A DNA stretch of 60,587 bases, the filler included, from Squatina squatina (lineage: Eukaryota): NCBI GenBank assembly GCA_031763465.1. It is 4 parts of 3 records of this genome, joined end to end, with 100 filler letters (N's around TTAATTAATTAA, not from the genome) between each part and the next. Parts side by side here need not be neighbours in the genome. Positions count along the whole stretch, not along the records: positions 14,929 to 28,161 come from JARFOE010000100.1; 3 more parts are not named here. The stretch is one strand, 5' to 3'. The position numbers were made by a program, and so were the translations under genes. Shown here one piece after another: positions 5,025-53,165 of the stretch. The notes beneath the pieces are model-generated. The model had not been told where the DNA came from and made no database searches. It worked only from the letters and a program-made list of their open reading frames with translations. Each line of letters starts with the position of its first letter. Position 1 is the first letter of the stretch.

Positions 5025-5115
5025 TAAAAAAACACATAAAGTGCTGGAAACTCTCAGCGGGTCAGGCAGCATCTGCGGAGAGACAAACAACGTTAACATT
5101 TCAGGTTGATGACCC
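5025..5115 (-). repeat. Penelope-like terminal repeat fragment
   Basis: gctggaaactctcagcgggtcaggcagcatctgcggagag... Same family as 15611, 16440, 30122 and 53035. Confidence 0.55.
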
Positions 5116-14828: not shown

Positions 14829-14928
14829 NNNNNNNNNNNNNNNNNNNNNNNNNNNNNNNNNNNNNNNNNNNNTTAATTAATTAANNNNNNNNNNNNNNNN
14901 NNNNNNNNNNNNNNNNNNNNNNNNNNNN
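14829..14928. other. Artificial scaffold spacer N44-TTAATTAATTAA-N44
   Basis: A six-frame stop linker centred in exactly 100 positions; gene content changes across it. Confidence 0.95.
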
Positions 14929-15610: not shown

Positions 15611-15752
15611 AAAGCAAAATACTGCGGGTGCGGGAAATCTGAAATAAAAACAGAAACTACTGGAAGTACTCAGCAGGTCAGGCAACGCCTGTGGAGACAG
15701 ACACCGAGTTAATGTTTCAGGACAGTGATGTTTCATCAGAACTGACGAAGGT
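15611..15752 (-). repeat. Penelope-like terminal repeat with degenerate hammerhead motif
   Basis: Minus strand of 15706-15744 reads CAGTT-CTGATGA-AACATCACTGTCCT-GAAAC-ATT-AACTC. Confidence 0.6.
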
Positions 15753-16185: not shown

Positions 16186-17014
16186 CAGCAAGCAGCTGCC
16201 TGAGGGAGATAACTGTTGAACACAAAGTTACCCAGAGGCTTTTCTATTACTGAGAAACACAGTGGTGCATGAAAGACCACCCAATAGTGGAAGGGGCATG
16301 GAGGGGAAAATATTTAGGCAAATCTATAAAATAATCAAGGGAGATTTCAGCTACTGCGAGGTAGGGAAAAGGAGTGGAGTTTTTTTTAGTGTGTACAGAA
16401 CTCCTTTCTCATCTAGAAGCCCAACAAGAGAGGAATCATAAATAATAAAAACAGAAAATGCTGGAGATACTCAGCAGGTCCGGCCGCATCTGTGGAGAGA
16501 GAAACAGTCAACGTTTCANNNNNNNNNNNNNNNNNNNNNNNNNNNNNNNNNNNNNNNNNNNNNNNNNNNNNNNNNNNNNNNNNNNNNNNNNNNNNNNNNN
16601 NNNNNNNNNNNNNNNNNNTAGGTTTTACCAAGCGTAAAAAACCTGAAGAGATCCCGAGCGAAAGTTTTGCAAAAATATCACAAAGCTCAGCGCTGGGGAT
16701 GAGTTCCGCAGTCTAAGCGTTGGAAATGTCAAGACAGATCGCAAATGCCGGTTATGCGAGCTTACGAGCCGGCTTTTGCGATGTCTCCACGGGTGCGTGG
16801 GAACATCGTTCCCACTCGGGGAGATTGCAATTTCAGGGCCATTCTGTGCTATTAACCTGGCCCACTCCAGGTTGAGGTTAAAGATCAGAGCAATTGTTTT
16901 CATATAACTAATTGAAAGGGTTCCCTGCTGCCTGAAATGTGTGTGGTTCAATATTTGTCGAAGTCCTTTGTGTTGATAGTTAGACTGCAGTCCTGTGCTT
17001 GTCTTTCTTCACAG

Positions 17015-19812: not shown

Positions 19813-20263
19813 CTGGAAAGGCAGAATGGAAAGTGCAGTCAAAGGTCTTGTCAGTGTTGCTGCTTGAGCGCAGCTCAATCCCAGTTTCTTGTGNNNNNNN
19901 NNNNNNNNNNNNNNNNNNNNNNNNNNNNNNNNNNNNNNNNNNNNNNNNNNNNNNNNNNNNNNNNNNNNNNNNNNNNNNNNNNNNNNNNNNNNNCGTGCGC
20001 AGTGGAGGGTTCGGAAACATAGACGTCGGGTGCAGGCCAGCGGGGGCTTGGGTGTGATGCACGCACAGTTGAACAGCCTTCCATCTCACACAGGAAGAAA
20101 GGCCACTTGGGGTGAGATAGAGGAAGGGATTATTCCCCAGGGAGAGTCAGCGCCCTCAGGAATGCCGATTCCAAGGATTGAACTACAGGGAGAAGAATGT
20201 GTTCATGGTCTATGAGTCTAGACACCAGACTAACCTCTCGCCTTCCTGTCTCCCCGGCTCCAG

Positions 20264-20561
20264 TGCAGAAGGAGAAAGGCTACACGAGTCGCCAGGACGA
20301 GGCTGTCAGGATCTTCAATTGTCTGCAGGAGCTGGAGTCCGTTTCCGATCCCATTCCCATCATCCAGGGAATTCTACAAACCTGCCAGGACCTGAAATCA
20401 CTGCGGGATGAGATTTACTGTCAGCTGATCAAACAGACGAACCACATGCCTCAGCCGAACAGCACAGGGAACCTGCACCACTGCCGGCTGCTCGGCTGCA
20501 TGAGCTGCACCTTCCTGCCCAGCCGGACAATCCTTCGCTATCTCAAGTTCCACCTCAAGAG
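20264..20561 (+). CDS. Myosin-X-like exon, MyTH4 domain (MYO10 paralog)
   Basis: 298-bp exon encoding QKEKGYTSRQDEAVRIFNCLQELESVSDPIPIIQGILQTCQDLKSLRDEIYCQLIKQTN...CTFLPSRTILRYLKFHLKR, closely resembling the MYO10 MyTH4 domain. Confidence 0.88.
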
Positions 20562-20576
20562 GTTTGAGTCACAGCT

Positions 20577-20652
20577 CCCAGCCAGCCCATAATATCCATC
20601 CACCCAGCCAGCCCATAATATCCGCCCAGACAGCCAGCCCATAATATCCATC
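20577..20652. repeat. Minisatellite, about 27-29 bp unit
   Basis: CAGCCAGCCCATAATATCC occurs three times before the gap. Confidence 0.85.
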
Positions 20653-20752
20653 NNNNNNNNNNNNNNNNNNNNNNNNNNNNNNNNNNNNNNNNNNNNNNNN
20701 NNNNNNNNNNNNNNNNNNNNNNNNNNNNNNNNNNNNNNNNNNNNNNNNNNNN

Positions 20753-21707
20753 CCACGGGAAGGGCCCAGTCCCACAGTGCAGTGCACCAGGGGAAGGGCC
20801 CAGCCCCACAGTGCAGGACACCAGGGCAAGGGCCCAGTCCCCCAGTGCAGGACACCAGGGAAAGGGTCCAGCCACACAGTGCAGGACACCAGGGAAAGGG
20901 CCTAGTCCCACAGTGCAGGACACCAGGGAAAAGGCCCAGTCCCCCAGGGCAGGTCACCAGGGGAAGGGTCCAGTCACACAGGGCACCAGGGGAAGGGCCC
21001 AGACCCACAGTGCAGGACACAAGGTGACGGGCCCAGTCCCACAGTGCACCAGGGGAAGGGCCCACTCTCACAGGGCAGGTTACCAGGGGAAGGGCCCAGT
21101 CTCACAGGGCAGGACACCAGGTGACGGGCCCAGTCCCACAGTGCAGGACACCAGGGGAAGGGCCCAGTCCCACAGTGCACCTGGGGAAGGATCAACTCTC
21201 ACAGGGCAGGGCACCAGGGGAAGGGCCAGTACCCCAGTGCACCAGGGGAAGGGTCCAGCCCCACAGGTCAGGGAACCAGGGAACAGGCTCAGTCCCACAG
21301 AGCACCGGGGGTAGGGCCCAATCTCAGGGCAGGGCACCAGGGGTCAGGCTCAGTCCCACAGAGCACCGGGGGTAGGGCCCAATCTCCCTGGGCAGGGCAC
21401 CAGGGGAAGGGCCAGTCCTCCAGTGCACCAGGGGAAGGGCGCAGTCCCACAGGGCAGGACACAAGGTGACGGGCCCAGTCCCACAGTGCAGGACACCAGG
21501 GGAAGGACTCAGTCCCACAGTGCACCAGGGGAAGGGCCCAGTACCATAGGGCATCTGGGGACAGGCCCACTCTCGCAGGGCAGGGCACCAGGGGAAGGGC
21601 CCAGTCCCACAGGGCACCAGGGGAAGGGCCCAGTCCCACAGGGCACCAGGGGAAGGGCCCAGTCCCACAGAGCACCAGGGAAAGGGCCCAGTCTCACAGG
21701 GCAGGGC
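20753..21707. repeat. GC-rich complex minisatellite (about 27-34 bp variant units)
   Basis: Recurring CCCAGTCCCACAGTGCAGGACACCAGGGGAAGGG and shortened variants. Confidence 0.92.
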
Positions 21708-21807
21708 NNNNNNNNNNNNNNNNNNNNNNNNNNNNNNNNNNNNNNNNNNNNNNNNNNNNNNNNNNNNNNNNNNNNNNNNNNNNNNNNNNNNNNNNNNNNN
21801 NNNNNNN

Positions 21808-22034
21808 GCTGTACCTGCCCTGGGAGTGTTTGATGGGACAGTGTAGAGGGAGCTTTACTCTGTATCTAACCCGTGATGTACCTGTCCTGGGAGTGTTTGA
21901 TGGGACAGTGTAGAGGGAGCTTTACTCTGTATCTAACCCGTGATGTACCTGCTCTGGGAGTGTTTGATGGGACAGTGTCGAGGGAACTTTACTCTGTATC
22001 TAACCCGTGCTGTACCTGCCCTGGGAGTGTTTGA
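21808..22034. repeat. 67-bp tandem repeat, about 3.4 copies
   Basis: Unit GCTGTACCTGCCCTGGGAGTGTTTGATGGGACAGTGTAGAGGGAGCTTTACTCTGTATCTAACCCGT starts at 21808, 21875, 21942 and 22009. Confidence 0.95.
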
Positions 22035-22057
22035 CGTTCCCTTTCCCTTTGGTTTAG

Positions 22058-22622
22058 ATCGCGTTATATCAGCACTGAGCTGGGAATTCGCGAGCGTTTG
22101 TTTGTCGGTGTCCTGACCTCCAAAACCACTCTGAACACTTTGGCTGTTGCCGTGAATCGCACGATGGGCAATCACATCGACAAGGTCCTGTACTTCACTG
22201 GGACCCGGAGCCGGAAGATTCCGCACGGGATGTACATCGTAACCCATGGCGATGAGCGGCCCATTTGGAACATGTACCAGACGGTGAAGTACGTCTTCGA
22301 GCATCACGGCGGTGAGTACGACTGGTTCTACTTCGCGCAGGACGACACGTACACTGAGGGCGACCGCATCAAGGCGCTGGTCGACCACCTGAGCATCGAC
22401 ACGGACCTGTACATGGGACGTCCTGAGGAGTTCATTGGGGGTGACACGGAGGGGCGGTACTGCTACGGGGGATTCGGATACTTGCTGTCCCGCAGTCTCC
22501 TGATTAAACTTCAGCCGCACCTGGAGAACTGTCGCAATGACATCCTGAGCGCCCGACCCGACGAGTGGCTGGGGCGATGTATCATCGATTATGTGGCAGT
22601 GAATTGTGTCGATGAGTACCAG
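22058..22622 (+). CDS. CHPF: Chondroitin polymerizing factor, internal exon
   Basis: SRYISTELGIRERLFVGVLTS...CRNDILSARPDEWLGRCII, AG/GT bounded. YISTELGIR and the block context favour CHPF over CHPF2. Confidence 0.88.
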
Positions 22623-22696
22623 GTGGGTGCAACTCACCGGGGCATGAACATACTCCCGAGATTGAAAATTCGCATCGATTGTATTCGGGTGTAGAA

Positions 22697-22867
22697 TATA
22701 AGAACACAGGAACATAAGAAACAGGAACAGGAGTCGGCCATTCGGCCCCTCGAGCCTGCTCCCCCATTCAATATGATCAGGGCTGATCTTCCTCAACACC
22801 ATTTTCCTGCACTATCCCCATATCCCTCGATGCCTTTAATATCTAGAAATCTATCGATCTCTGTTTT
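22697..22867 (-). mobile_element. CR1-type LINE 3' end
   Basis: aagaacacaggaacataagaaacaggaacaggagtcggccattcggcccctcgagcc, the reverse complement of the typical CR1 tail. Confidence 0.75.
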
Positions 22868-23028
22868 NNNNNNNNNNNNNNNNNNNNNNNNNNNNNNNNN
22901 NNNNNNNNNNNNNNNNNNNNNNNNNNNNNNNNNNNNNNNNNNNNNNNNNNNNNNNNNNNNNNNNNNNAGGCTCGAGGGGCTGAATGGCCTCCTGTTCCTA
23001 ACCCTCTTTTTTCTCTCTCGATTTTTAG

Positions 23029-23774
23029 GATGAAATCAGAAACGTCAGCAGCCTAACGGTCGAGGGCGAGAAAGCAAGCAGCTGGCCCGTGGGGATTAAC
23101 ACCCCATTCCACCCGCGCACACGGTTCGAGGTCCTGCGCTGGGACTATTTCACCGAAGACCAGGTCTTCTCCTGTGTGGACGGAGCCCCGAAGTGCGAGC
23201 TGCGCGGGATTGACAAGAACGACGTCAGCAACATCATCGAGATGGCAGTGGAAGAGCTGAACAGGAAATACCAGCCCGTTCTTCAGCTGCGCAAGGAGCA
23301 ACTGGTGAACGGTTACCGCAGGTTCGACCCCACCCGTGGCATGGAGTACACCCTGGACTTGCGGCTGGAGGTCCTCACCCAGAAGGGGCACAGCCGCTCC
23401 ATCACCAAGAGGGTCTACCTTGTGCGGCCGCTCAGCAGCGTGGAGATCATTCCCATGCCTTACGTGACCGAGGCCACCAGGGTCCACATCATTCTCCCGC
23501 TGAGCCTCCACGAGAGAGACCAGGCCACTCAGTTCATCGAGCTGTATGCCCTCAATGCGCTGGAGAGCAATGAGAACGCTATCCTCACCCTGCTCTTCAT
23601 CTACGACCCATTTGAGGCCCAGCGGGTGAACCAGAATGACATCTTCAGCAGCGTCAAGGCCAAGATCATGGAGTGCGAGAGGAAATACCCAGAGACGAAG
23701 ATCCCCTGGATCAGCGTGAAGACTGACTCGCCGTCCCAGATCAAAATCATGGACATCATCTCCAAAAAGCACCC
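23029..23774 (+). CDS. CHPF: Chondroitin polymerizing factor, last exon (truncated by gap)
   Basis: DEIRNVS...WPVGINTPFHPRTRFEVLRWDYFTE...NGYRRFDPTRGMEYTLDL...EIIPMPYVTEATRV...MDIISKKH. Confidence 0.9.
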
Positions 23775-23874
23775 NNNNNNNNNNNNNNNNNNNNNNNNNN
23801 NNNNNNNNNNNNNNNNNNNNNNNNNNNNNNNNNNNNNNNNNNNNNNNNNNNNNNNNNNNNNNNNNNNNNNNNNN

Positions 23875-25256
23875 GGGACATTGTATTTAAGGAGGAGGAG
23901 TGTGAAATATTAGATGAGAGAAACATAGTGAGAGTGGAAGTATTAAGGGGTTTAGCATCTTTGAAAGTAGATAAATCGCCAGGCCCAGTGAAATGTATCC
24001 CAGGCTAACTGTTAGGAGAAGCAAAGAGGAAATAACAGAGGCTCTGACCATCATTTTCCAATCCTCTCTGGCTACAGGTGTGGTGCGGAGGACTGGAGGA
24101 CTGCTAATGTACCATTGTTTAGAAAGGGGGAAGGGATAAACCGAGTAATTACAGGCCAGTTGGCCTTAACCTGGGCAAATTGTTGGAAAAATTTCTGAGG
24201 GACAGTATTAATCATCATTTAGAATGACACGGATTAATCAAGGACAGTCAGCATGGATTTGCTAAGGGAAGGTTGTGTCTGTCTAACTTGATTGAATTTT
24301 TTGAGGAGGTAACAAGGAGAGTGATGAGGGTAGTGCGTTTGATATAGTCTACATGGATTTTAGTAAGGCCTTTGATAAGTTCCCACATGGCAGACTGGTC
24401 AGAAAAGTAAAAGCCACGGGATCCAAGGGAAAATGATAAGTTGGATCCAAAATTCGGTCAGTGGCAGGTAGCAAAGGGTAATGGTTGACGGGTGTTTTTG
24501 TGACTGGAAAGATGCTTCCAGAAGTTTTCCGCAGGGCTCAGTACTCGGCCCCGTGCTTTTTGTGTTATGCATCAATTATTTAGACTTCAATGTAGGGATC
24601 TTCAATCATCAATCTTCCCACATTACAACAGTGACCACACTCCAAAAGTATTTCATTGACTGTCAAGTGCTTTGAGCCTGGTGGTCATGAAAGGTGCTAT
24701 ATAAATGCAAGACTTTTTTTTTCTATTGGAGGCATGATTAAGAAGTTTTCAGATGATACATAAATTGGTCCTGTGGTTGATAGTGAGGAAGAAAGCTGAG
24801 AACTGCAGGAAGGTATCAGTAGACTGGTCAGTTGGGCAGAAAAGTGGCAAATGGATTTCAATCCGGAGAACTGTGAGGAAATGCATTTGGAGAGGGCTTA
24901 CATAAAAAATGATAGGTTACTCAGAAGTGTAAAACAACAGAGGGACCTTGGAATGCATGGATCCATGAAGGTAGGAGGACAGGTAAATAAAGTGGATAAG
25001 AAGGCTCACGGGATACTTTCCTTTATTGGCCGAGGCATAGAATATAAGAGCAGGGAGGTTATGCTTGAACTGTATAAAACACCAGTTAGGCCATGGCAAG
25101 AGACTTTGTACAGTTCTGGTCACCACATCACAGGAAAGATGTGATTGCACCAGACAGGGTACAGAGAAGATTTACGAGGATGTTGCCTGGGCTGCAGAAT
25201 CTTCGCTTCGAGGAAAGATTGGATAGGCCGGGGTTGTTTTGTTTGGAACAGAGGAG
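23875..25256 (+). mobile_element. Decayed CR1 LINE ORF2 (reverse transcriptase)
   Basis: Frameshifted motifs NYRPV, SQHGF, MDFSKAFDK, PQGSVLGPVLF, FSDDT and VQFWSPH. Confidence 0.9.
24596..24727 (+). mobile_element. SINE 3' tail nested inside the CR1 RT domain
   Basis: cacattacaacagtgaccacactccaaaagta...aaaggtgctatataaatgcaag matches the tail of the 4140-4606 SINE and splits the CR1 between DFNVG and GMIKKFSDD. Confidence 0.75.
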
Positions 25257-26419: not shown

Positions 26420-27244
26420 TATACTGTGGTACGCCTGTGAGATCCATCACAGTGTACTGTGGTACGCCGGTGAGATCCATCTATGCATACTGTGGTACAC
26501 CTGTGAGATCCATCACAGATTACTGTGGTATGCCTGTGAGATCCATCACAGTACACCATGGTATTCCTGTGAGATCCATTAAAGTATACTGTGGTACACC
26601 TGTGAGATCCATCACATTATACTATGGTACACATGTTAGATGCATCACATTATACAGTAGTAACCCTGTGAGATCTATCGCAGTATACTGTGGTATACCT
26701 GTGAGTTCCATCGCAGTATACTATGGTACGCCTGTGAGATCCATCGCAGTATAATCTGGTACACATGTTAGATTCATCACAGTATACAGTAGTAACCCTG
26801 TGAGATGCATCACAGTACACTGTGGTACGCCTGTGAGCTCCATCGCAGTATATTGTGTTAAGCCTGTGAGATCCATCACAGTACACTGTGGTAAGCCTGT
26901 GAGTTCCATCACAGTATACTGTGGTAAGCCTGTGAGTTCCATCGCAGTACACTGTGGTAAGCCTGTGAGATCCATCACGGTATACAGTGGTAAGGCTGTG
27001 AGATTCATCACAGGACACAGTGGTGAGCTTGTGAGATCCATTACAGTACACTGTGGTAGGCATTTTAGATCCATCACAGTGCACTGTGGTAAGCCTGTGA
27101 GATCCATCGCAGTATACTGTGGTACGCCTGTGACATCCATCACAGTATACTGTGGTACGCCTGTGAGATCCATCATAGTATTCTGAGGTACGCCTGTGAG
27201 ATCCATCGCAGTATACTGTGGTACGCCTGTGAGATAGATCTCAG
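26420..27244. repeat. 33-bp minisatellite, about 25 copies
   Basis: Unit CTGTGAGATCCATCACAGTATACTGTGGTACGC, giving 11-aa periodic ORFs on both strands. Confidence 0.95.
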
Positions 27245-28161: not shown

Positions 28162-28261
28162 NNNNNNNNNNNNNNNNNNNNNNNNNNNNNNNNNNNNNNN
28201 NNNNNTTAATTAATTAANNNNNNNNNNNNNNNNNNNNNNNNNNNNNNNNNNNNNNNNNNNN
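28162..28261. other. Artificial scaffold spacer N44-TTAATTAATTAA-N44
   Basis: Identical construct to 14829-14928. Confidence 0.95.
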
Positions 28262-30121
28262 CTTGGCCGAGGGGTTGATCACCAGGGCGCATAGATTTAG
28301 CCTAGAACATACTTGACCCACATTGCCTGTTTTAAGTGGGTGATCTGAGATATAATGGCTTTAGTTTTCATTTTGTTTTGGTTGAGAGCACTGTCGGCCA
28401 GCTCAAGAGGCCAGACAGAAGATGATGCACATCATACAATAGGCGGAGATGTGGGAAGAGCAATCAGCCCCAGTCCTTCTAGCCTGTGCAGATGGAAAAT
28501 CTACCCTATGTAGGAGATGGGAGGCCTTTATTGCAATTCGTATTGTGAGGTGGGAGGCAGCAGATTTAGCAAGTGGTAGTCGCTCCTCTCAGCTCTGACC
28601 TATGCACTGAATGGAGGGGAGAGGGGAGGGTGTGTGGAAACTTTGCTTCCAATTTTACTATTAGCACCAAACTAACTCTATTACTACCTTCAAGTGCATG
28701 TTTTGTCTGAGTGACTATCTGAAGCCAAAACCAACAAAAAAGGATTGCCCTGTCTCCTACTTGTATAAATATTTACTTAACAATACCTTGGAATTCCCTA
28801 ACAGGGACTTGCTATAAATAGGCAGAGATATTTGGAGAAAAATACACAAAATTACAAGTTAACAGCAGCCTCCAATTATTTCAATCAAAAGCATTACATG
28901 GTGTTTATTCTACTGAGCAAATTACAGGCGGAATGGAAGTCTTCCAAAATGTCCTATGCTGGAGTTGCTGGACAGAGTGAGGATTTCTTCACTTTCTACC
29001 GTTGGATGCACACGAGGCTTTAACAAATCGATTTAAAAGTTTGTATGTGTTTTTTTTAACCTCCATCTTCCTGTACTGCAGTTTCTTCCCCTCCTTAGGT
29101 TTCCCCATGTCATTTCCTAAACAATGATTCCAAGTGGTTGCCATGCCATTCAACAGGTTGGGTGGGTGGGGGCGTACATGGACCAGCCCAGCTTAAATTA
29201 TCCAGTCTTGTTCCTCCCCTTCCTGAGCCTTATCTCTGCCCATGTCTTTACACTCCTTTGGACTATGTAACCTAATATAAGAGGACAGAGAGGTGACCTG
29301 CTCCCAGTCCTCTGCGAGTGACAAACTACTAGTAGGTAGATGGGAGTAGTACAGGCTGACTTGTCTCTGACGTTTCCTCCCAAGGGAAATTGACATGTGG
29401 CCAGCAAACATGGGGAGCTATGATGAGCCAATCCAAACTGTACGTTTCATTGGTCAGATACAGAGCTTCTGATTATTAGTATCACATACCTGGTCAATTT
29501 TGATTTTATAATCCTGCACTAGAAAGGTTGATAATACTGCGGTTTGGCAATGTAGTTTAATTTCCTGTGGTTGTGGACCGGTTAATATATTTTTTTGATT
29601 CCACAGGGCTTAGCGTCATCGTGTTGAGAAATGGCTTCTTCCTAATTTAGAAGCTGCAACAGTTTGCAGCTTTAAACAAAGTATTCCTTTGGGATTACCT
29701 TGAATTCTCCCTGAATTCGCAGATAAGATCCACTGGGATTTTCTTTTTCTTCCTCTGGAACCAGATAGACCTTCTAAAACTAAGTTGGCTTAACAAGTAG
29801 CTGCTGGAGGATGAGAAGTGCTTTTGAATTCCCTCAACACCTAACCTTGCAGAATTGAAAAGATTTTTTTTTGTGGTTGTAAAATAGTGCCTGTTGTATT
29901 TTATCATACGTACAGAAGTGGAATTTTTGGACAAGGATTTTATTCCCCAGTGTATAACCCATTTCTTTTAAAGATGGTGAGTGGCACTGAAGTAATATTC
30001 CTTGCATGCTGCTGTATCTTTTAGTTCAGTCCCGCCAACACCTAAACTATCCCCGCTTATCCCAATTAGCCGCCTACATTGGGCAAATGGCGCTAATCAA
30101 CGTTCCCTTTAAGCTGTAGTA

Positions 30122-30270
30122 CAAGCGCAAAATACAGCAGATGCAGGAAACCTGAAATAAGAACAGGAAATGCTGGAAACACTCAGCAGGTCAGGCTGCA
30201 TCTGTGGAGAGAGAAACAGAGTTAACGTTTCAGGTCGAAGACCTGCTGAGTTTTTTCCAGCATTCTGTTT
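30122..30270. repeat. Penelope-like terminal repeat, fold-back derivative
   Basis: aatgctggaaacactcagcaggtc is followed about 45 bp later by gacctgctgagttttttccagcatt, its approximate reverse complement. Confidence 0.65.
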
Positions 30271-32319
30271 AAATCAATGATTTTCATAATTTGCCACGTC
30301 CAAATGACACCAGTGATGTATGCTGACACAAGTTAAATGTGAAGTTCTTATGACAGCTTCACAGTGTACACGTTGTCTCAATCTGTAGTATTAGTGTACC
30401 AAACTACTGGCCCACCCAACACTCTGTTAAGCTGGATATAATATTTACAGATGCCATAAACACCCTCAGCTTATCCAATGCTGGAAATTTTGCAAGGACT
30501 AGGCTCTGAAAACTGCATTTATTCCCATGCAAAATTTGTTGTACTGCATCCTGGAGGTCATTTTTGTCTGGAATTGCCATCCCCGTGTTAAACTAGAGTA
30601 ACTTTAAGGCCTTTGGTTAAATGAGGATAATTGTTGACTCTCTCTTTCTGGGCAGAGTCAAGTACCAGAGCAGAGAAGTGATACCCGTATTATATAATTT
30701 GTGAGTGCCTGAAAGTAACTCTAGTTTAAATCTGGCCTCTATTTGTTGTAGTATGAATATTGCCAAAACTTAGATCCAGCATGAAAAGAAAAACTTGCAG
30801 CACTATGGGGAAAGGGTGGGTGAATGAGACTAATTGGATAGCTCTTTCAAAGAGCAGACTGAATGGTACTCCTGTGCTGTATAATTCTACAATTCCACCC
30901 CCCCCCCCACCCCGGCACCCCGGGCGTCATTAGGTGAGTACAGTGTGTGCTGCATTGAGATCGTGCCCCAATCTAACTTCTAGGCCCTGGTTTTTACTGG
31001 GTCTTCCCAACTTGTGTTGGTTCTTGGAGCTCAGTTTACAGGGTGCTCAATGTGTTTCATTCGCATTCAGCTGGTCCTCCACCATGACATTGTTCTTTGG
31101 CCTGTCCTTGTTCTAAACTTCAGATGACTTGAGTCAGCACCAGCTCATATTTTAGGTGATCTCTGTAGTTTATTCACCACTATTGTGTTATCCAGCATGC
31201 TATTGACTGGCATCTATTATTCTCTACTATTGGTGACATTGCTGAAGATAAAGAATAAAGGGATTAGTTCTTTTGGCTGAAGCACCTTTGCCCATACTTG
31301 TCTCAAAATCTGCAGATGTGACTAAACCAGCAGCTGCACAGAATTTTCACCCCTGAACAGAAACTTTTGAATAGATTTACTTTAAGATATTTTACCCATT
31401 GTTTGGAGTTGGTGGTATAGTTTCAATGATGTGTTGTGGATAATGCAGCTCTATCTATGTTGCTCCTATGTTATTTTGTCATCAATAATATTGTGTCCTG
31501 GGATACATCAGAATAGTTCAGCGATAGCTGATTTCAGCTGCATTACTTTTATTAATGCAGTTTAAGCATTTTCATTTAAAAATAATCCTGGTCTTAAATA
31601 TTTCCATTTGAAAAGCTTTGATTTGTGGCAAATAAAAAGGAAGTGGCTGCAGAGAAGGGAGGTCAGTCGTCGAGACTGACCAGTCACTTACTATCCAGGA
31701 GGAAGAATGAACCTCGTGGCAGGCTAAAGCTCCTCGGGTGAGGACCAGGATTCAGCAGTTGATGAGTACGTTTGGTACATGATACTTGGACATTTGAAAA
31801 AAATCAAGGCATGGCACGGCACAAACATTGTAGGTGCTTCCATCATATTGAAAGCAAGATGCCCACCATCTTGAGGATCTTTTGCAGGCCCCCGCTGCCC
31901 ATGTGGTCAGAGGGATGGTTCAGTGCGCATTCACATTTTAGATGAGTTGTACTGCTCATTATGTAGCTTGTGAGAAGTTCCTGCTGCCAACCTATCAAGG
32001 GCTGAGCCCCTATGCCTGTCAGTTGTCGAATAGAGAATGGAATGAGGGGATGTCATTGGGATCAGTTTTGGACCTGAGATTGTGTAAGGTGATATGAAAA
32101 TTTGGAATCAAGTCAGCCATCTGTAAATTAATTCACTTTTTATTTAATAAATTCACAATAGTTTTAAAATTAAAAACAGGTCTGATGTGATGTTCTACTG
32201 CTCGCAGATGGGGAAACAATCCGATGGCAGCATAGGATAAATTGCAGTAGGTAAAATTATATTGCTAGACAGGGTTTCTGTATCTTATCTTGAGCTCATT
32301 GCTGAAAGATTACTTAGGT

Positions 32320-35193: not shown

Positions 35194-35381
35194 CTTTTGG
35201 ATGAGCCGTTAAACGGAGGCCCTGTCTGCTCTCTCAGGTGGATGTACAAGATCCCATGGCACTATTTCGAAGAAGAGCAGGGGAGTTATCCCTGGTGTCC
35301 TGGGCCAATATTTATCCCTCAATCAACATCACTAAAACAGATTATCTGGCCATTATCACATTGCTGTTTGTGGGAGCTTGC
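35194..35381 (+). mobile_element. Deu-domain SINE fragment
   Basis: ggatgagccgttaaacggaggcc...gatcccatggcactatttcgaagaagagcaggggag; same family as 4140-4606. Confidence 0.8.
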
Positions 35382-35481
35382 NNNNNNNNNNNNNNNNNNN
35401 NNNNNNNNNNNNNNNNNNNNNNNNNNNNNNNNNNNNNNNNNNNNNNNNNNNNNNNNNNNNNNNNNNNNNNNNNNNNNNNNN

Positions 35482-35854
35482 AGCGGAGCCTGAGGAGGAT
35501 CACATACGTGCTTCACCCGGGCAAGTCTCACCCCGCCACCGCCGCCGGCAGCAGCAGCATCGGCCGGACCAGTGTCTCTTCCTTCGGCACCAGGCACGGC
35601 TCTTCCTCCTCCTCGTCCTCCTCCTACACGCTGAGGGCGCAGGGCTCGGCTCCCGTGCTGGAGGTGAAGACCAGTTACCGGAGGACGTCGCCCCAGGTCA
35701 GGACCCGGCGGATGGGCAAGGCGAGCCACCGCGTCCAGCCCATCGCCCAGTTCCATCACCCCCACCACCAGTTCTACCAGCAGCACCACTCCAAGCCGCA
35801 CCAGCAGCAGTCTATGAGGCACCCTGTGCAGTACCAAAAACAGCAGTCCAACGG
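35482..35854 (+). CDS. LTBP1: LTBP1 long-isoform first exon (5' part lost in gap)
   Basis: LRRITYVLHPG...VQYQKQQSNG/gtaagg matches the recalled human LRRITYVVHPG...VHQKQQLQG. CpG-rich. Confidence 0.85.
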
Positions 35855-51200: not shown

Positions 51201-52777
51201 GAAANNNNNNNNNNNNNNNNNNNNNNNNNNNNNNNNNNNNNNNNNNNNNNNNNNNNNNNNNNNNNNNNNNNNNNNNNNNNNNNNNNNNNNNNNNNNNNNN
51301 NNNNACCTCACGTTACCACACTGGCATCCCATGCTGCCTTGAGACATGCAGCATAGATCAAAGAAAGATTTTGTTGTGATGCGTTGACACCGCAAGTTGC
51401 ACTGCAGTGTAGAATCTACGATTATTAAAATAATGAAGGAATGAATAAGGTGGATGGAGTGCAATAGTTTGTGTACAACCGGGAAGAGAAAAGAAGAATG
51501 TGATTGTAATCTAAGGAAAACACAATACAATGAAACTTAAAGAACATTTATTGGTTATCTCAGGAACGTAGGAACTCCTACTGGGGTACAGTTGTATAGA
51601 TGTTAGCAGCCTCCACTGCTTTGCCAAAGCAGTTATTCTTGATGTGTAAGCGTGGCAGCAAATGTCACAAACTATTCAACCATAAAGGCACCACAGCTAA
51701 ACCTATTCATGGTCTCATATGCACATTTTTTAGCCCTGATCCCTGAGTAGCAATCAGGGATCCTGGCTGATTTTTCCTTCCCTAGCCCAAGGTCACTGAA
51801 ATCCAATTGCCGCATCTCAATATCACACGAGATCAGCTGACTCAGCATAAGCCAGGAGATATCAGGAAGGATGACCCAAAGTTTGGTCAAAGAGGGTCTT
51901 AAGGAAAGAGAAGGAGGTGGAGAGATGACGGGGCTGAAATTGAGTGCCGACGCGTTCGAAACACATACTGGGCGGTGCCGGCATTTCTCTCGCCGGCGTC
52001 TGTCCCGCCCCTCCCGGAATTCAGTGCTCCGGGGCACCTGCAGGACACAGCACGCACCCGGNNNNNNNNNNNNNNNNNNNNNNNNNNNNNNNNNNNNNNN
52101 NNNNNNNNNNNNNNNNNNNNNNNNNNNNNNNNNNNNNNNNNNNNNNNNNNNNNNNNNNNNNNNNNNNNNNNNNNNNNNNNNNNNNNNNNNNNNNNNNNNN
52201 NNNNNNNNNNNNNNNNNNNNNNNNNNNNNNNNNNNNNNNNNNNNNNNNNNNNNNNNNNNNNNNNNNNNNNNNNNNNNNNNNNNNNNNNNNNNNNNNNNNN
52301 NNNNNNNNNNNNNNNNNNNNNNNNNNNNNNNNNNNNNNNNNNNNNNNNNNNNNNNNNNNNNNNNNNNNNNNNNNNNNNNNNNNNNNNNNNNNNNNNNNNN
52401 NNNNNNNNNNNNNNNNNNNNNNNNNNNNNNNNNNNNNNNNNNNNNNNNNNNNNNNNNNNNNNNNNNNNNNNNNNNNNNNNNNNNNNNNNNNNNNNNNNNN
52501 NNNNNNNNNNNNNNNNNNNNNNNNNNNNNNNNNNNNNNNNNNNNNNNNNNNNNNNNNNNNNNNNNNNNNNNNNNNNNNNNNNNNNNNNNNNNNNNNNNNN
52601 NNNNNNNNNNNNNNNNNNNNNNNNNNNNNNNNNNNNNNNNNNNNNNNNNNNNNNNNNNNNNNNNNNNNNNNNNNNNNNNNNNNNNNNNNNNNNNNNNNNN
52701 NNNNNNNNNNNNNNNNNNNNNNNNNNNNNNNNNNNNNNNNNNNNNNNNNNNNNNNNNNNNNNNNNNNNNNNNNNNNC

Positions 52778-53165
52778 ATAACCACTGCTCCTTTTTCTTT
52801 CAGAAAGCAGCTAGTGGTAATGATTCTGCTTTTGTCATTTTCAGGTCCTCTAGACTCATCTTTTCTTTCTTAACTTGTCCCATTACCATCTCCTTTTGCC
52901 TTTCACCATCATCCCTTTTGTTTCTTAATCTTTCCTACCTTCCATCCTATCATAAACCTTCCCTTTTGTTCTTTCCTCCCCTCCCCCCTTTCCCTACACT
53001 TGCTTAAAAACCTGTTATATCTCTTAACTTTTTCCAGTTCTTACAAGGGGTCATCGACCTGAAATGTTAACTCTTTCTCTCTCCATGGACTGCCTGACCT
53101 GCTGAGTATTACCAGCATTTTGTTTTTATTTCAGATTTCCAGCATCTGCAGTATTTTGCTTTTAT
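52778..53165 (+). mobile_element. Penelope-like element terminal region
   Basis: Pyrimidine-rich stretch, then ccagttcttacaaggggtcatcgacctgaaatgttaactc...gacctgctgagtattaccagcatt...gcagtattttgcttt, the reverse complement of 15611-15744. Confidence 0.6.

Follow-up and report, generated by a model that had tools for sequence, protein, structure and literature searches.

The window analysed here, 60,587 nucleotides of the Squatina squatina assembly GCA_031763465.1 with filler included, is made up of four stretches, joined at 14829-14928, 28162-28261 and 44384-44483 and broken by many assembly gaps, and contains five copies of one repeat that are 74-88% identical to each other in pairwise comparison. 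This raises the question as to whether these pieces are remnants of a minimal type I hammerhead ribozyme in the pseudo-LTR (pLTR) of a Penelope-like element (PLE), and what such a ribozyme would contribute to the spread of the element. The initial annotation had assembled the ribozyme as a composite from five copies, none of them intact, and all five are present where it had placed them (Table 1). None is able to form the ribozyme, which is dead in all window copies. The copy at 15706 had been described as keeping both boxes with a damaged stem II, and this is what we find: on the minus strand, 15707-15743 reads AGTT, CTGATGA, an extra A, a stem II with two of five pairs, GAAA, CATT and AACT, with C3 at 15739; the bond predicted to be cut joins 15711 and 15710. 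That its stem III palindrome is also broken (CATT; 16.2 G>A) had been missed. The copy at 53035, said to keep stem II and to read CTTACAA, does both; at 53036-53072 (+), stem II has four Watson-Crick pairs and a G-U, the core is CTTACAA and stem III is TGTT. This copy opens at the stop codon of an ORF (TAA, 52779-52781), just behind a gap of 715 N, and is therefore a whole 3' pLTR. At 30220-30244 (-), stem II with loop TTC is followed by an intact GAAACGTT, and the 5' core is missing, as 5' truncation has left an inverted piece in its place; together, 30240-30275 and 30117-30244 are a miniature head-to-head insertion. The copies at 5090-5115 and 16500-16518 are interrupted by assembly gaps and not truncated, and the junction of the inverted stub at 15742-15751 recurs in another locus of the genome (L347). 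A 30-nt weak match to the pLTR 3' UTR at 38358-38387 (+; E 1e-4) may be a sixth, very decayed pLTR fragment, or due to chance.

Table 1. Copies of the repeat and their parts in the window (positions in the whole stretch).
Feature	Position	Strand	Remarks
pLTR copy, stem II to short tail	5026..5115	-	5' part missing through assembly gap
Short pLTR copy, hammerhead and long tail	15612..15743	-	genome match G000:C100:684-822; 5' end is the motif's 5' edge, 3' end meets assembly gap
Decayed minimal type I hammerhead	15707..15743	-	from the sequence
10-nt inverted stub of hammerhead 5' core, head-to-head with the main copy	15742..15751	+	
pLTR copy with GAAA box, intact stem III palindrome and short tail	16444..16518	-	5' part missing through assembly gap
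pLTR copy truncated at stem II, long tail	30117..30244	-	
Inverted tail fragment	30240..30275	+	joined to the 30117-30244 copy by 5-nt microhomology
Complete 3' pseudo-LTR: stop codon, 3' UTR, hammerhead, long tail	52777..53165	+	
Decayed hammerhead	53036..53072	+	stem II intact; G5 and G8 lost; 15.2 C>T

An Rfam scan of the window gave no hammerhead match at the repeat copies, and single-strand folding of the copies was uninformative, with z-scores around 0; the case for a ribozyme therefore rests on motif, copy number and context and not on folding energy. A tblastn search of PLE proteins against the window gave no match, and the ORF beside the 53035 copy falls in the gap. In the genome as a whole (1.52 Gb in 1.15 million contigs), a search with the repeat returned 1,446 candidates. 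An exact hammerhead skeleton has 5,276 matches in the genome vs. a single one for the reversed control, its G-C-closed version has 1,711 exact matches vs. none, and a 29-nt stretch of the tail has 7,473. The window has five copies of the repeat across its 54 kb of called bases, and the locus flanks have 13 across 275 kb, a density of about one copy per 11-21 kb and a sizeable share of the genome; a rough extrapolation from this density suggests a total of ~70,000-140,000 copies.

For an unbiased view of the motif we used 86 copies that span all of it and were picked by upstream, ORF, junction or tail sequence, blind to the motif itself. The hammerhead base is the majority base at every core position (C3 in 80 of 86, U4 82, G5 80, A6 80, G8 65, A9 80, G12 80, A13 85, A14 86, A15.1 84, U16.1 74, and U at H17 in 82); the core is kept by 46 copies, core and stems by 24, and 13 are perfect. 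The genome-wide consensus thus has the CUGANGA and GAAA boxes and the GUU site, with UH and one extra base after A9, and in its core the composite of the initial annotation stands at genome scale. It does not at two positions: N7 is mostly C (59/86; the T in 20/86 is due to CpG decay) and 10.1 is mostly G (65/86). The main minor alleles at N7, G8, 15.2, 16.2 and 11.5 are all CpG decay products, and the palindromic pair 15.2-16.2, which closes without a loop 3, is C-G in 46 of the 86 copies and a CpG decay product in 30 more. The repeat family behind the decayed window pieces thus carries a minimal type I hammerhead motif of a known kind, for which cleavage at GUU is predicted only in a dimer or when protein assists. 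A second family with a GUC site was considered and dropped, as its 162 matches (125 in the control) are mostly mutated copies of the GUU family.

Since the copies decay neutrally, only differences between master lineages can covary in the stems. The frequent variants that do not stem from CpG decay, at 10.1 (G/A), 11.1 (U/C), 1.1 (A/G) and in loop II, all keep pairing. For pair 10.1-11.1, 138 copies (59 of 197 were left out because they had been selected on these bases) have G-C in 16, G-U in 74, A-U in 41, A-C in two and other combinations in five (Fisher p 0.056); a smaller copy set gives p 0.09, and the 100 listed of the 5,276 skeleton matches, counted by hand, have 11 G-C, 52 G-U, 33 A-U, one A-C and three others (p 0.052). 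The covariation that had been proposed as a check is at most suggestive: A-C is under-represented at this pair at borderline significance (p 0.05-0.09), and no two-sided change was seen at the other stem pairs. In a less diverged subfamily, 10.1-11.1 is G-C in six of 11 copies and 2.1-1.1 is a U-G pair in eight of 11; an older subfamily has no G-C at 10.1-11.1 in 51 copies. These counts are suggestive of a path from G-C via G-U to A-U without proving it. Stem III needs two copies to form. By nearest-neighbour energies, inactive rods come out 8-14 kcal/mol ahead of the active dimer, and U17 can pair with A14 (-2.4 to -2.6 kcal/mol). This agrees with the low activity of published minimal hammerheads (PMC4209133), with the report that one of nine frog dimers cleaved (10.64898/2026.07.22.740005) and with the protein-assisted cleavage of the anole motif.

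Is the repeat part of a PLE? When copies are selected by the 210 nt that precede the motif, they run 5' into the end of an ORF, which translates as a GIY-YIG domain: in a Pfam search one of three ORF-end pieces matched GIY-YIG (E 0.0024; none for the other two), and the 20 endonuclease homologs are headed by proteins from skate, whale shark and zebra shark with 56-69% identity (skate 69%, whale shark 59%), followed by echinoderm and annelid proteins, a ranking that makes a cartilaginous fish the likely host. Among the homologs, RVT_1 scores above the Pfam cutoff in the full-length protein P0015 and GIY-YIG in P0002. A whale-shark RT query yielded 3,702 candidates in the genome. Thirty RT loci were fetched, most of them too short to be informative; two (L100 and L109) have RT, EN and the repeat in this order on one contig, a third (L108) has the repeat ahead of the ORF, and a fourth (L120) has an inverted tail piece. 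The translation of L109 contains an RT with YIDD, a C-x4-C-x2-C linker and a GIY-YIG domain with CCHH residues, interrupted by three stops. Like the genome's other broken ORF pieces it scores just under the Pfam cutoffs (GIY-YIG E 1.4e-4, 22.5 bits vs. a cutoff of 22.6; RVT_1 E 0.14). On the 5' side, pLTR-to-ORF junctions are found in L121, L124, L165, L179 and others, where the motif and tail are followed by ~45 more bases and then the ATG that opens the ORF. The element is thus laid out as 5' pLTR (hammerhead and tail), ~150 nt, ORF start, RT, Cys linker, GIY-YIG and stop, with about 260-300 nt between the stop codon and the hammerhead and tail of the 3' pLTR. An RT plus GIY-YIG ORF has the repeat both behind its stop codon (3' copies in L100 and L109) and ahead of its start (5' copies in the four junction loci named above), and this presence on both sides together with an optional 3' tail of ~33 nt supports the pseudo-LTR proposed at the outset; a single contig with both full pLTRs was not seen among the loci read. 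Truncation at the 5' end and inverted 5' copies are also present, in the window at 30240-30275 and 15742-15751. An upstream ORF in the leader was discarded as a candidate, its frame differing between subfamilies. As a side observation, in four annotated skate and shark proteins (P0001, P0003, P0005 and P0006) the element's endonuclease is fused to unrelated sequence; these are likely gene-model artefacts or exonised copies.

The class of the motif and its position have been known since 2014, when Cervera and De la Pena described minimal hammerheads in the pLTRs of metazoan PLEs, GUU sites included (given for many species in their Fig. S3; PMC4209133). The shark motif shares with these CUGANGA plus an extra base, a stem II of 5 bp, GAAA, a loopless C-G palindrome, a short stem I, a U-rich 5' side and an occurrence in both pLTRs and mostly as dispersed single copies, and it has the same CUGACGAA-GGG start as the motif of a coral Neptune element. 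It differs in that 10.1-11.1 is mostly G-U or A-U. Cartilaginous fish do not appear in Table S1 or Fig. S3 of that paper (supplement file 2), and our literature search returned nothing on Neptune-type PLEs in sharks; the motif extends a published rule to a further host lineage, and the repeat is worth a proper annotation. Judging from the Cys linker motif, which points to Neptune or Nematis, the element is likely an EN+ PLE of the Neptune type. The two clades were defined by Craig et al. 2021 (10.1101/2021.04.23.441226), and in the portions of that work available to us they share with the shark element a zinc-finger-like RT-EN motif (C-x4-C-x2-C in L109, of a kind common to Neptune and Nematis), CCHH in the EN, inverted 5'-truncated copies and an optional tail; Neptune was not recovered as monophyletic there, and the shark element is placed by its linker motif only. 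The Poseidon element PAc of Anolis carolinensis (Frangieh et al. 2024, PMC11167929) likewise has an RT with C-terminal GIY-YIG, a hammerhead in its pLTR, two RT starts and a tail of 30-40 nt. Internal RT starts define the tail of PAc, uncut RNA is its main substrate and cleavage needs protein. In PAc, however, stem II contains the start of the ORF, which also takes in the tail, whereas the shark element has its ATG ~150 nt behind the cut site, a non-coding tail and a Cys-rich RT-EN linker.

The large number of copies offers a record of where reverse transcription began and ended. At the 3' side, 109 of 217 uncensored ends lie at +90 to +104 from C3 and 73 at +125 to +139; these two classes, ~33 nt apart, are the optional 30-40-nt tail of Penelope-like elements. 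Exact target-site duplications of at least 8 nt flank 7 of 115 copies (8 of 600 in the control). For the 5' side we took the 100 listed of the 7,473 tail matches, half of which are censored by gaps. Of the 50 resolved ends, 19 fall at -8 to +1, 14 at +2 to +21, three at +22 to +30, three beyond +30, three at -100 to -9 and eight further upstream, so that the ends pile up at -8 to +1 (p 8e-17 vs. the -100 to -9 bin, p 0.004 vs. the +2 to +21 bin). The pile-up recurs in three motif-selected samples (14/36, 10/32 and 16/27), where it is centred on -5 to -1 (46 ends). An assembly length cut-off is an unlikely cause, as the position is unchanged with short or long tails and in diverged copies, although half of the tail-selected sample is gap-censored. 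The predicted cut has no such pile-up: two of the 50 resolved ends are at +26 to +31, and among the 100 listed of 350 matches from a cut-site search there is no clear peak at +29 (~7-9 ends by hand count, compared with 13 at +28 and eight at +31). The end record shows that the templates of the short copies were uncut RNA, and since many copies start at the first letters of the motif and not at the cut site, this RNA likely started there. A G precedes the first templated base in 23 of 52 cases (27.7% expected, p 0.008) among the 100 listed of 572 genome-wide matches to a pattern for truncated copies, 24 of which have no G at -3; by hand count, G precedes 13 of 30 starts at -3 and 10 of 22 at -4. 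Taken singly, the halves of this sample give p 0.07 and 0.04. The modest excess fits with what an untemplated, cap-derived G in a share of the copies would give. The flanks of 57 pile-up copies share no upstream exon and include no spliced copy of the element, and several of them are inverted pieces of it. Two of the 57 (L209 and L223) adjoin, on their 5' side, inverted sequence that derives from upstream of -4, and their template may therefore have been longer. A search for titles and abstracts on a 5'-end pile-up at PLE hammerheads, with subscription papers, Repbase and preprint supplements outside its scope, found none, and the accessible parts of PMC4209133 hold no description of one.

Two kinds of later change surfaced in the loci fetched with the cut-site search. 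In 8 of 30, short repeats of other kinds, with GGCC or AGCC at their end, have inserted into the hammerhead at the RTT of stem III (L355, L357, L359, L361, L366, L368, L375 and L378, at ~position 1500 each), and the same kind of inserted repeat is present in L048, L051 and L172. The insertions come with an apparent duplication of 3 nt, as Harbinger-type MITEs would make, and the hammerhead motif seems to be their preferred target. Further rows are small deletions; L354 and others share a recurrent deletion of 13 nt between two GAC triplets that takes out the GAAA box and the cut site.

We consider it probable that the repeats in the window are decayed pLTR copies of an abundant Neptune-type PLE with RT and GIY-YIG, the motif of which is predicted to cut at GUU only in a dimer or with protein. 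In the life cycle that we propose, the element's protein would nick target DNA and start reverse transcription internally, at one site 90-105 nt and another 125-140 nt behind C3, as has been seen in vitro for the anole element. The transcript would be capped and would start at the Inr-like YCAGTT just ahead of the core. Inr-like motifs in the pLTR have been reported for rotifer PLEs (PMC3846280). With the capped leader as template, the product would be a complete copy of 100-140 nt with hammerhead and tail; with read-through RNA from an upstream copy, it would extend into the ORF and be truncated at random. The ribozyme would likely act later or rarely, in the processing of tandem read-through RNA. 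We give about even chances to the proposal that the hammerhead's first base is where the mRNA of the shark element starts and that priming at internal sites 95-135 nt further downstream made its capped, uncut leader into tens of thousands of complete mini-insertions. If it is true, the start site is fixed from DNA alone and the mostly solo occurrence of PLE hammerheads is explained; cleavage at 30 nt from the start would take the cap off the message, and the ribozyme would switch the RNA between the roles of template and message instead of forming genome ends. The copies would then record both RT start sites and the template's 5' end, giving exact coordinates. For D. virilis Penelope (Schostak et al. 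2008, PMC2377424), a promoter inside the pLTR and a splice-acceptor-like signal directly before helix I are likewise described; its start, however, lies ~126 nt ahead of C3, and an intron of 75 nt that ends at C3-5 (our arithmetic) separates the two, whereas the shark element has its inferred start 2-5 nt ahead of C3 and shows no intron.

The region before the core (T-tract plus CAG) also reads like a 3' splice site, and the leader holds three acceptor-like signals, one of them directly ahead of the ORF start. Overlapping the predicted cut site is a branch motif of yUnAy type, 21 nt ahead of a long pyrimidine tract, CAG and then an ATG, an arrangement present in the window at 53062-53090 (+) and in all copies at +26 to +52 from C3. 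Sense-strand copies in introns could serve as splice acceptors.

How firmly the 5' pile-up marks a transcription start depends on whether it could arise during copying instead, by an RT pause, a fold-back or a template switch at the motif's 5' edge, with the TCAG-TT-CTGA hairpin, the upstream U-tract, a bound protein or a splice junction as candidates for the obstacle. The inverted upstream pieces beside forward pieces that start at -1 and -3 (L209, L223), the fold-back stubs at the 5' edge in the window (15742-15751) and in L347, and a D. virilis intron that ends at the same relative place, as far as the published excerpts go, all speak for such a cause. A structure, however, would be expected to stall the enzyme 3' of the hammerhead, where few ends fall, and neither the G enrichment ahead of the first base nor the lack of an upstream exon common to the 57 flanks is accounted for; we regard this origin of the pile-up as possible but doubtful. 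The short copies might also form an independent non-autonomous family, SINE-like or a retrozyme, with short masters or RNA circles of its own. Their very large number, common ends and occasional target-site duplications would be in line with this, and animal non-LTR retrozymes, reported in one chondrichthyan genome, do derive from pLTRs and carry a type I hammerhead (Li et al. 2026, 10.64898/2026.07.22.740005). These, however, are tandem units that each have a complete hammerhead, whereas the shark copies are dispersed, single or head-to-head and tied to an ORF, and they share subfamily variants with the ORF-linked copies; they end at ~-3 and +95 or +130 and not at +29, and are thus not cut-to-cut monomers, and tandem arrays of the unit do not occur in the loci read. 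An independent family is accordingly quite improbable.

The preferred reading, a PLE motif predicted to cut as a dimer or with protein, also has to be weighed against one in which cleavage has been lost in the shark lineage and the motif persists for another reason, such as the binding of a protein or signals for promoter or splicing. The closing pair 10.1-11.1 is mostly G-U or A-U and not G-C (74, 41 and 16 of 138), U17 can pair with A14, starts at the cut show no clear excess among the 100 of 350 matches listed, and the cut site overlaps the branch-like motif ahead of pyrimidine tract and CAG. Loss of cleavage nevertheless appears unlikely to us: all core bases are majority bases, the frequent non-CpG variants at 10.1, 11.1 and 1.1 keep pairing, the younger-looking subfamily has G-C in 6/11, GUU sites and non-G-C closings occur among the published PLE hammerheads accessible in PMC4209133, and the anole motif cleaves with protein (PMC11167929). 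That the hammerhead emerges by chance when decayed repeats are combined would accord with the window, where no copy is intact, Rfam is silent and folding z-scores are ~0, but has a negligible probability given the skeleton counts (5,276 vs. 1 and 1,711 vs. 0), the 13 perfect and 24 core-and-stem-keeping copies among the 86 unbiased ones, and a motif position that matches that in published PLEs.

Outside the repeat, the window has two minisatellite arrays, at 20538-21913 and 26650-27240, the latter with sub-threshold Rfam mir-308 matches via hairpin-forming units. Two long exons of a host gene are located at 22035-23913 (+), which we take to be from chondroitin polymerizing factor or chondroitin synthase, and a frame at 20182-20592 (+) reads, in our estimation, like an exon of a MyTH4-domain myosin. 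Exon-like frames are also present at 35336-35977 and 41200-41500 (+), presumably related to latent TGF-beta binding protein, which they resemble.
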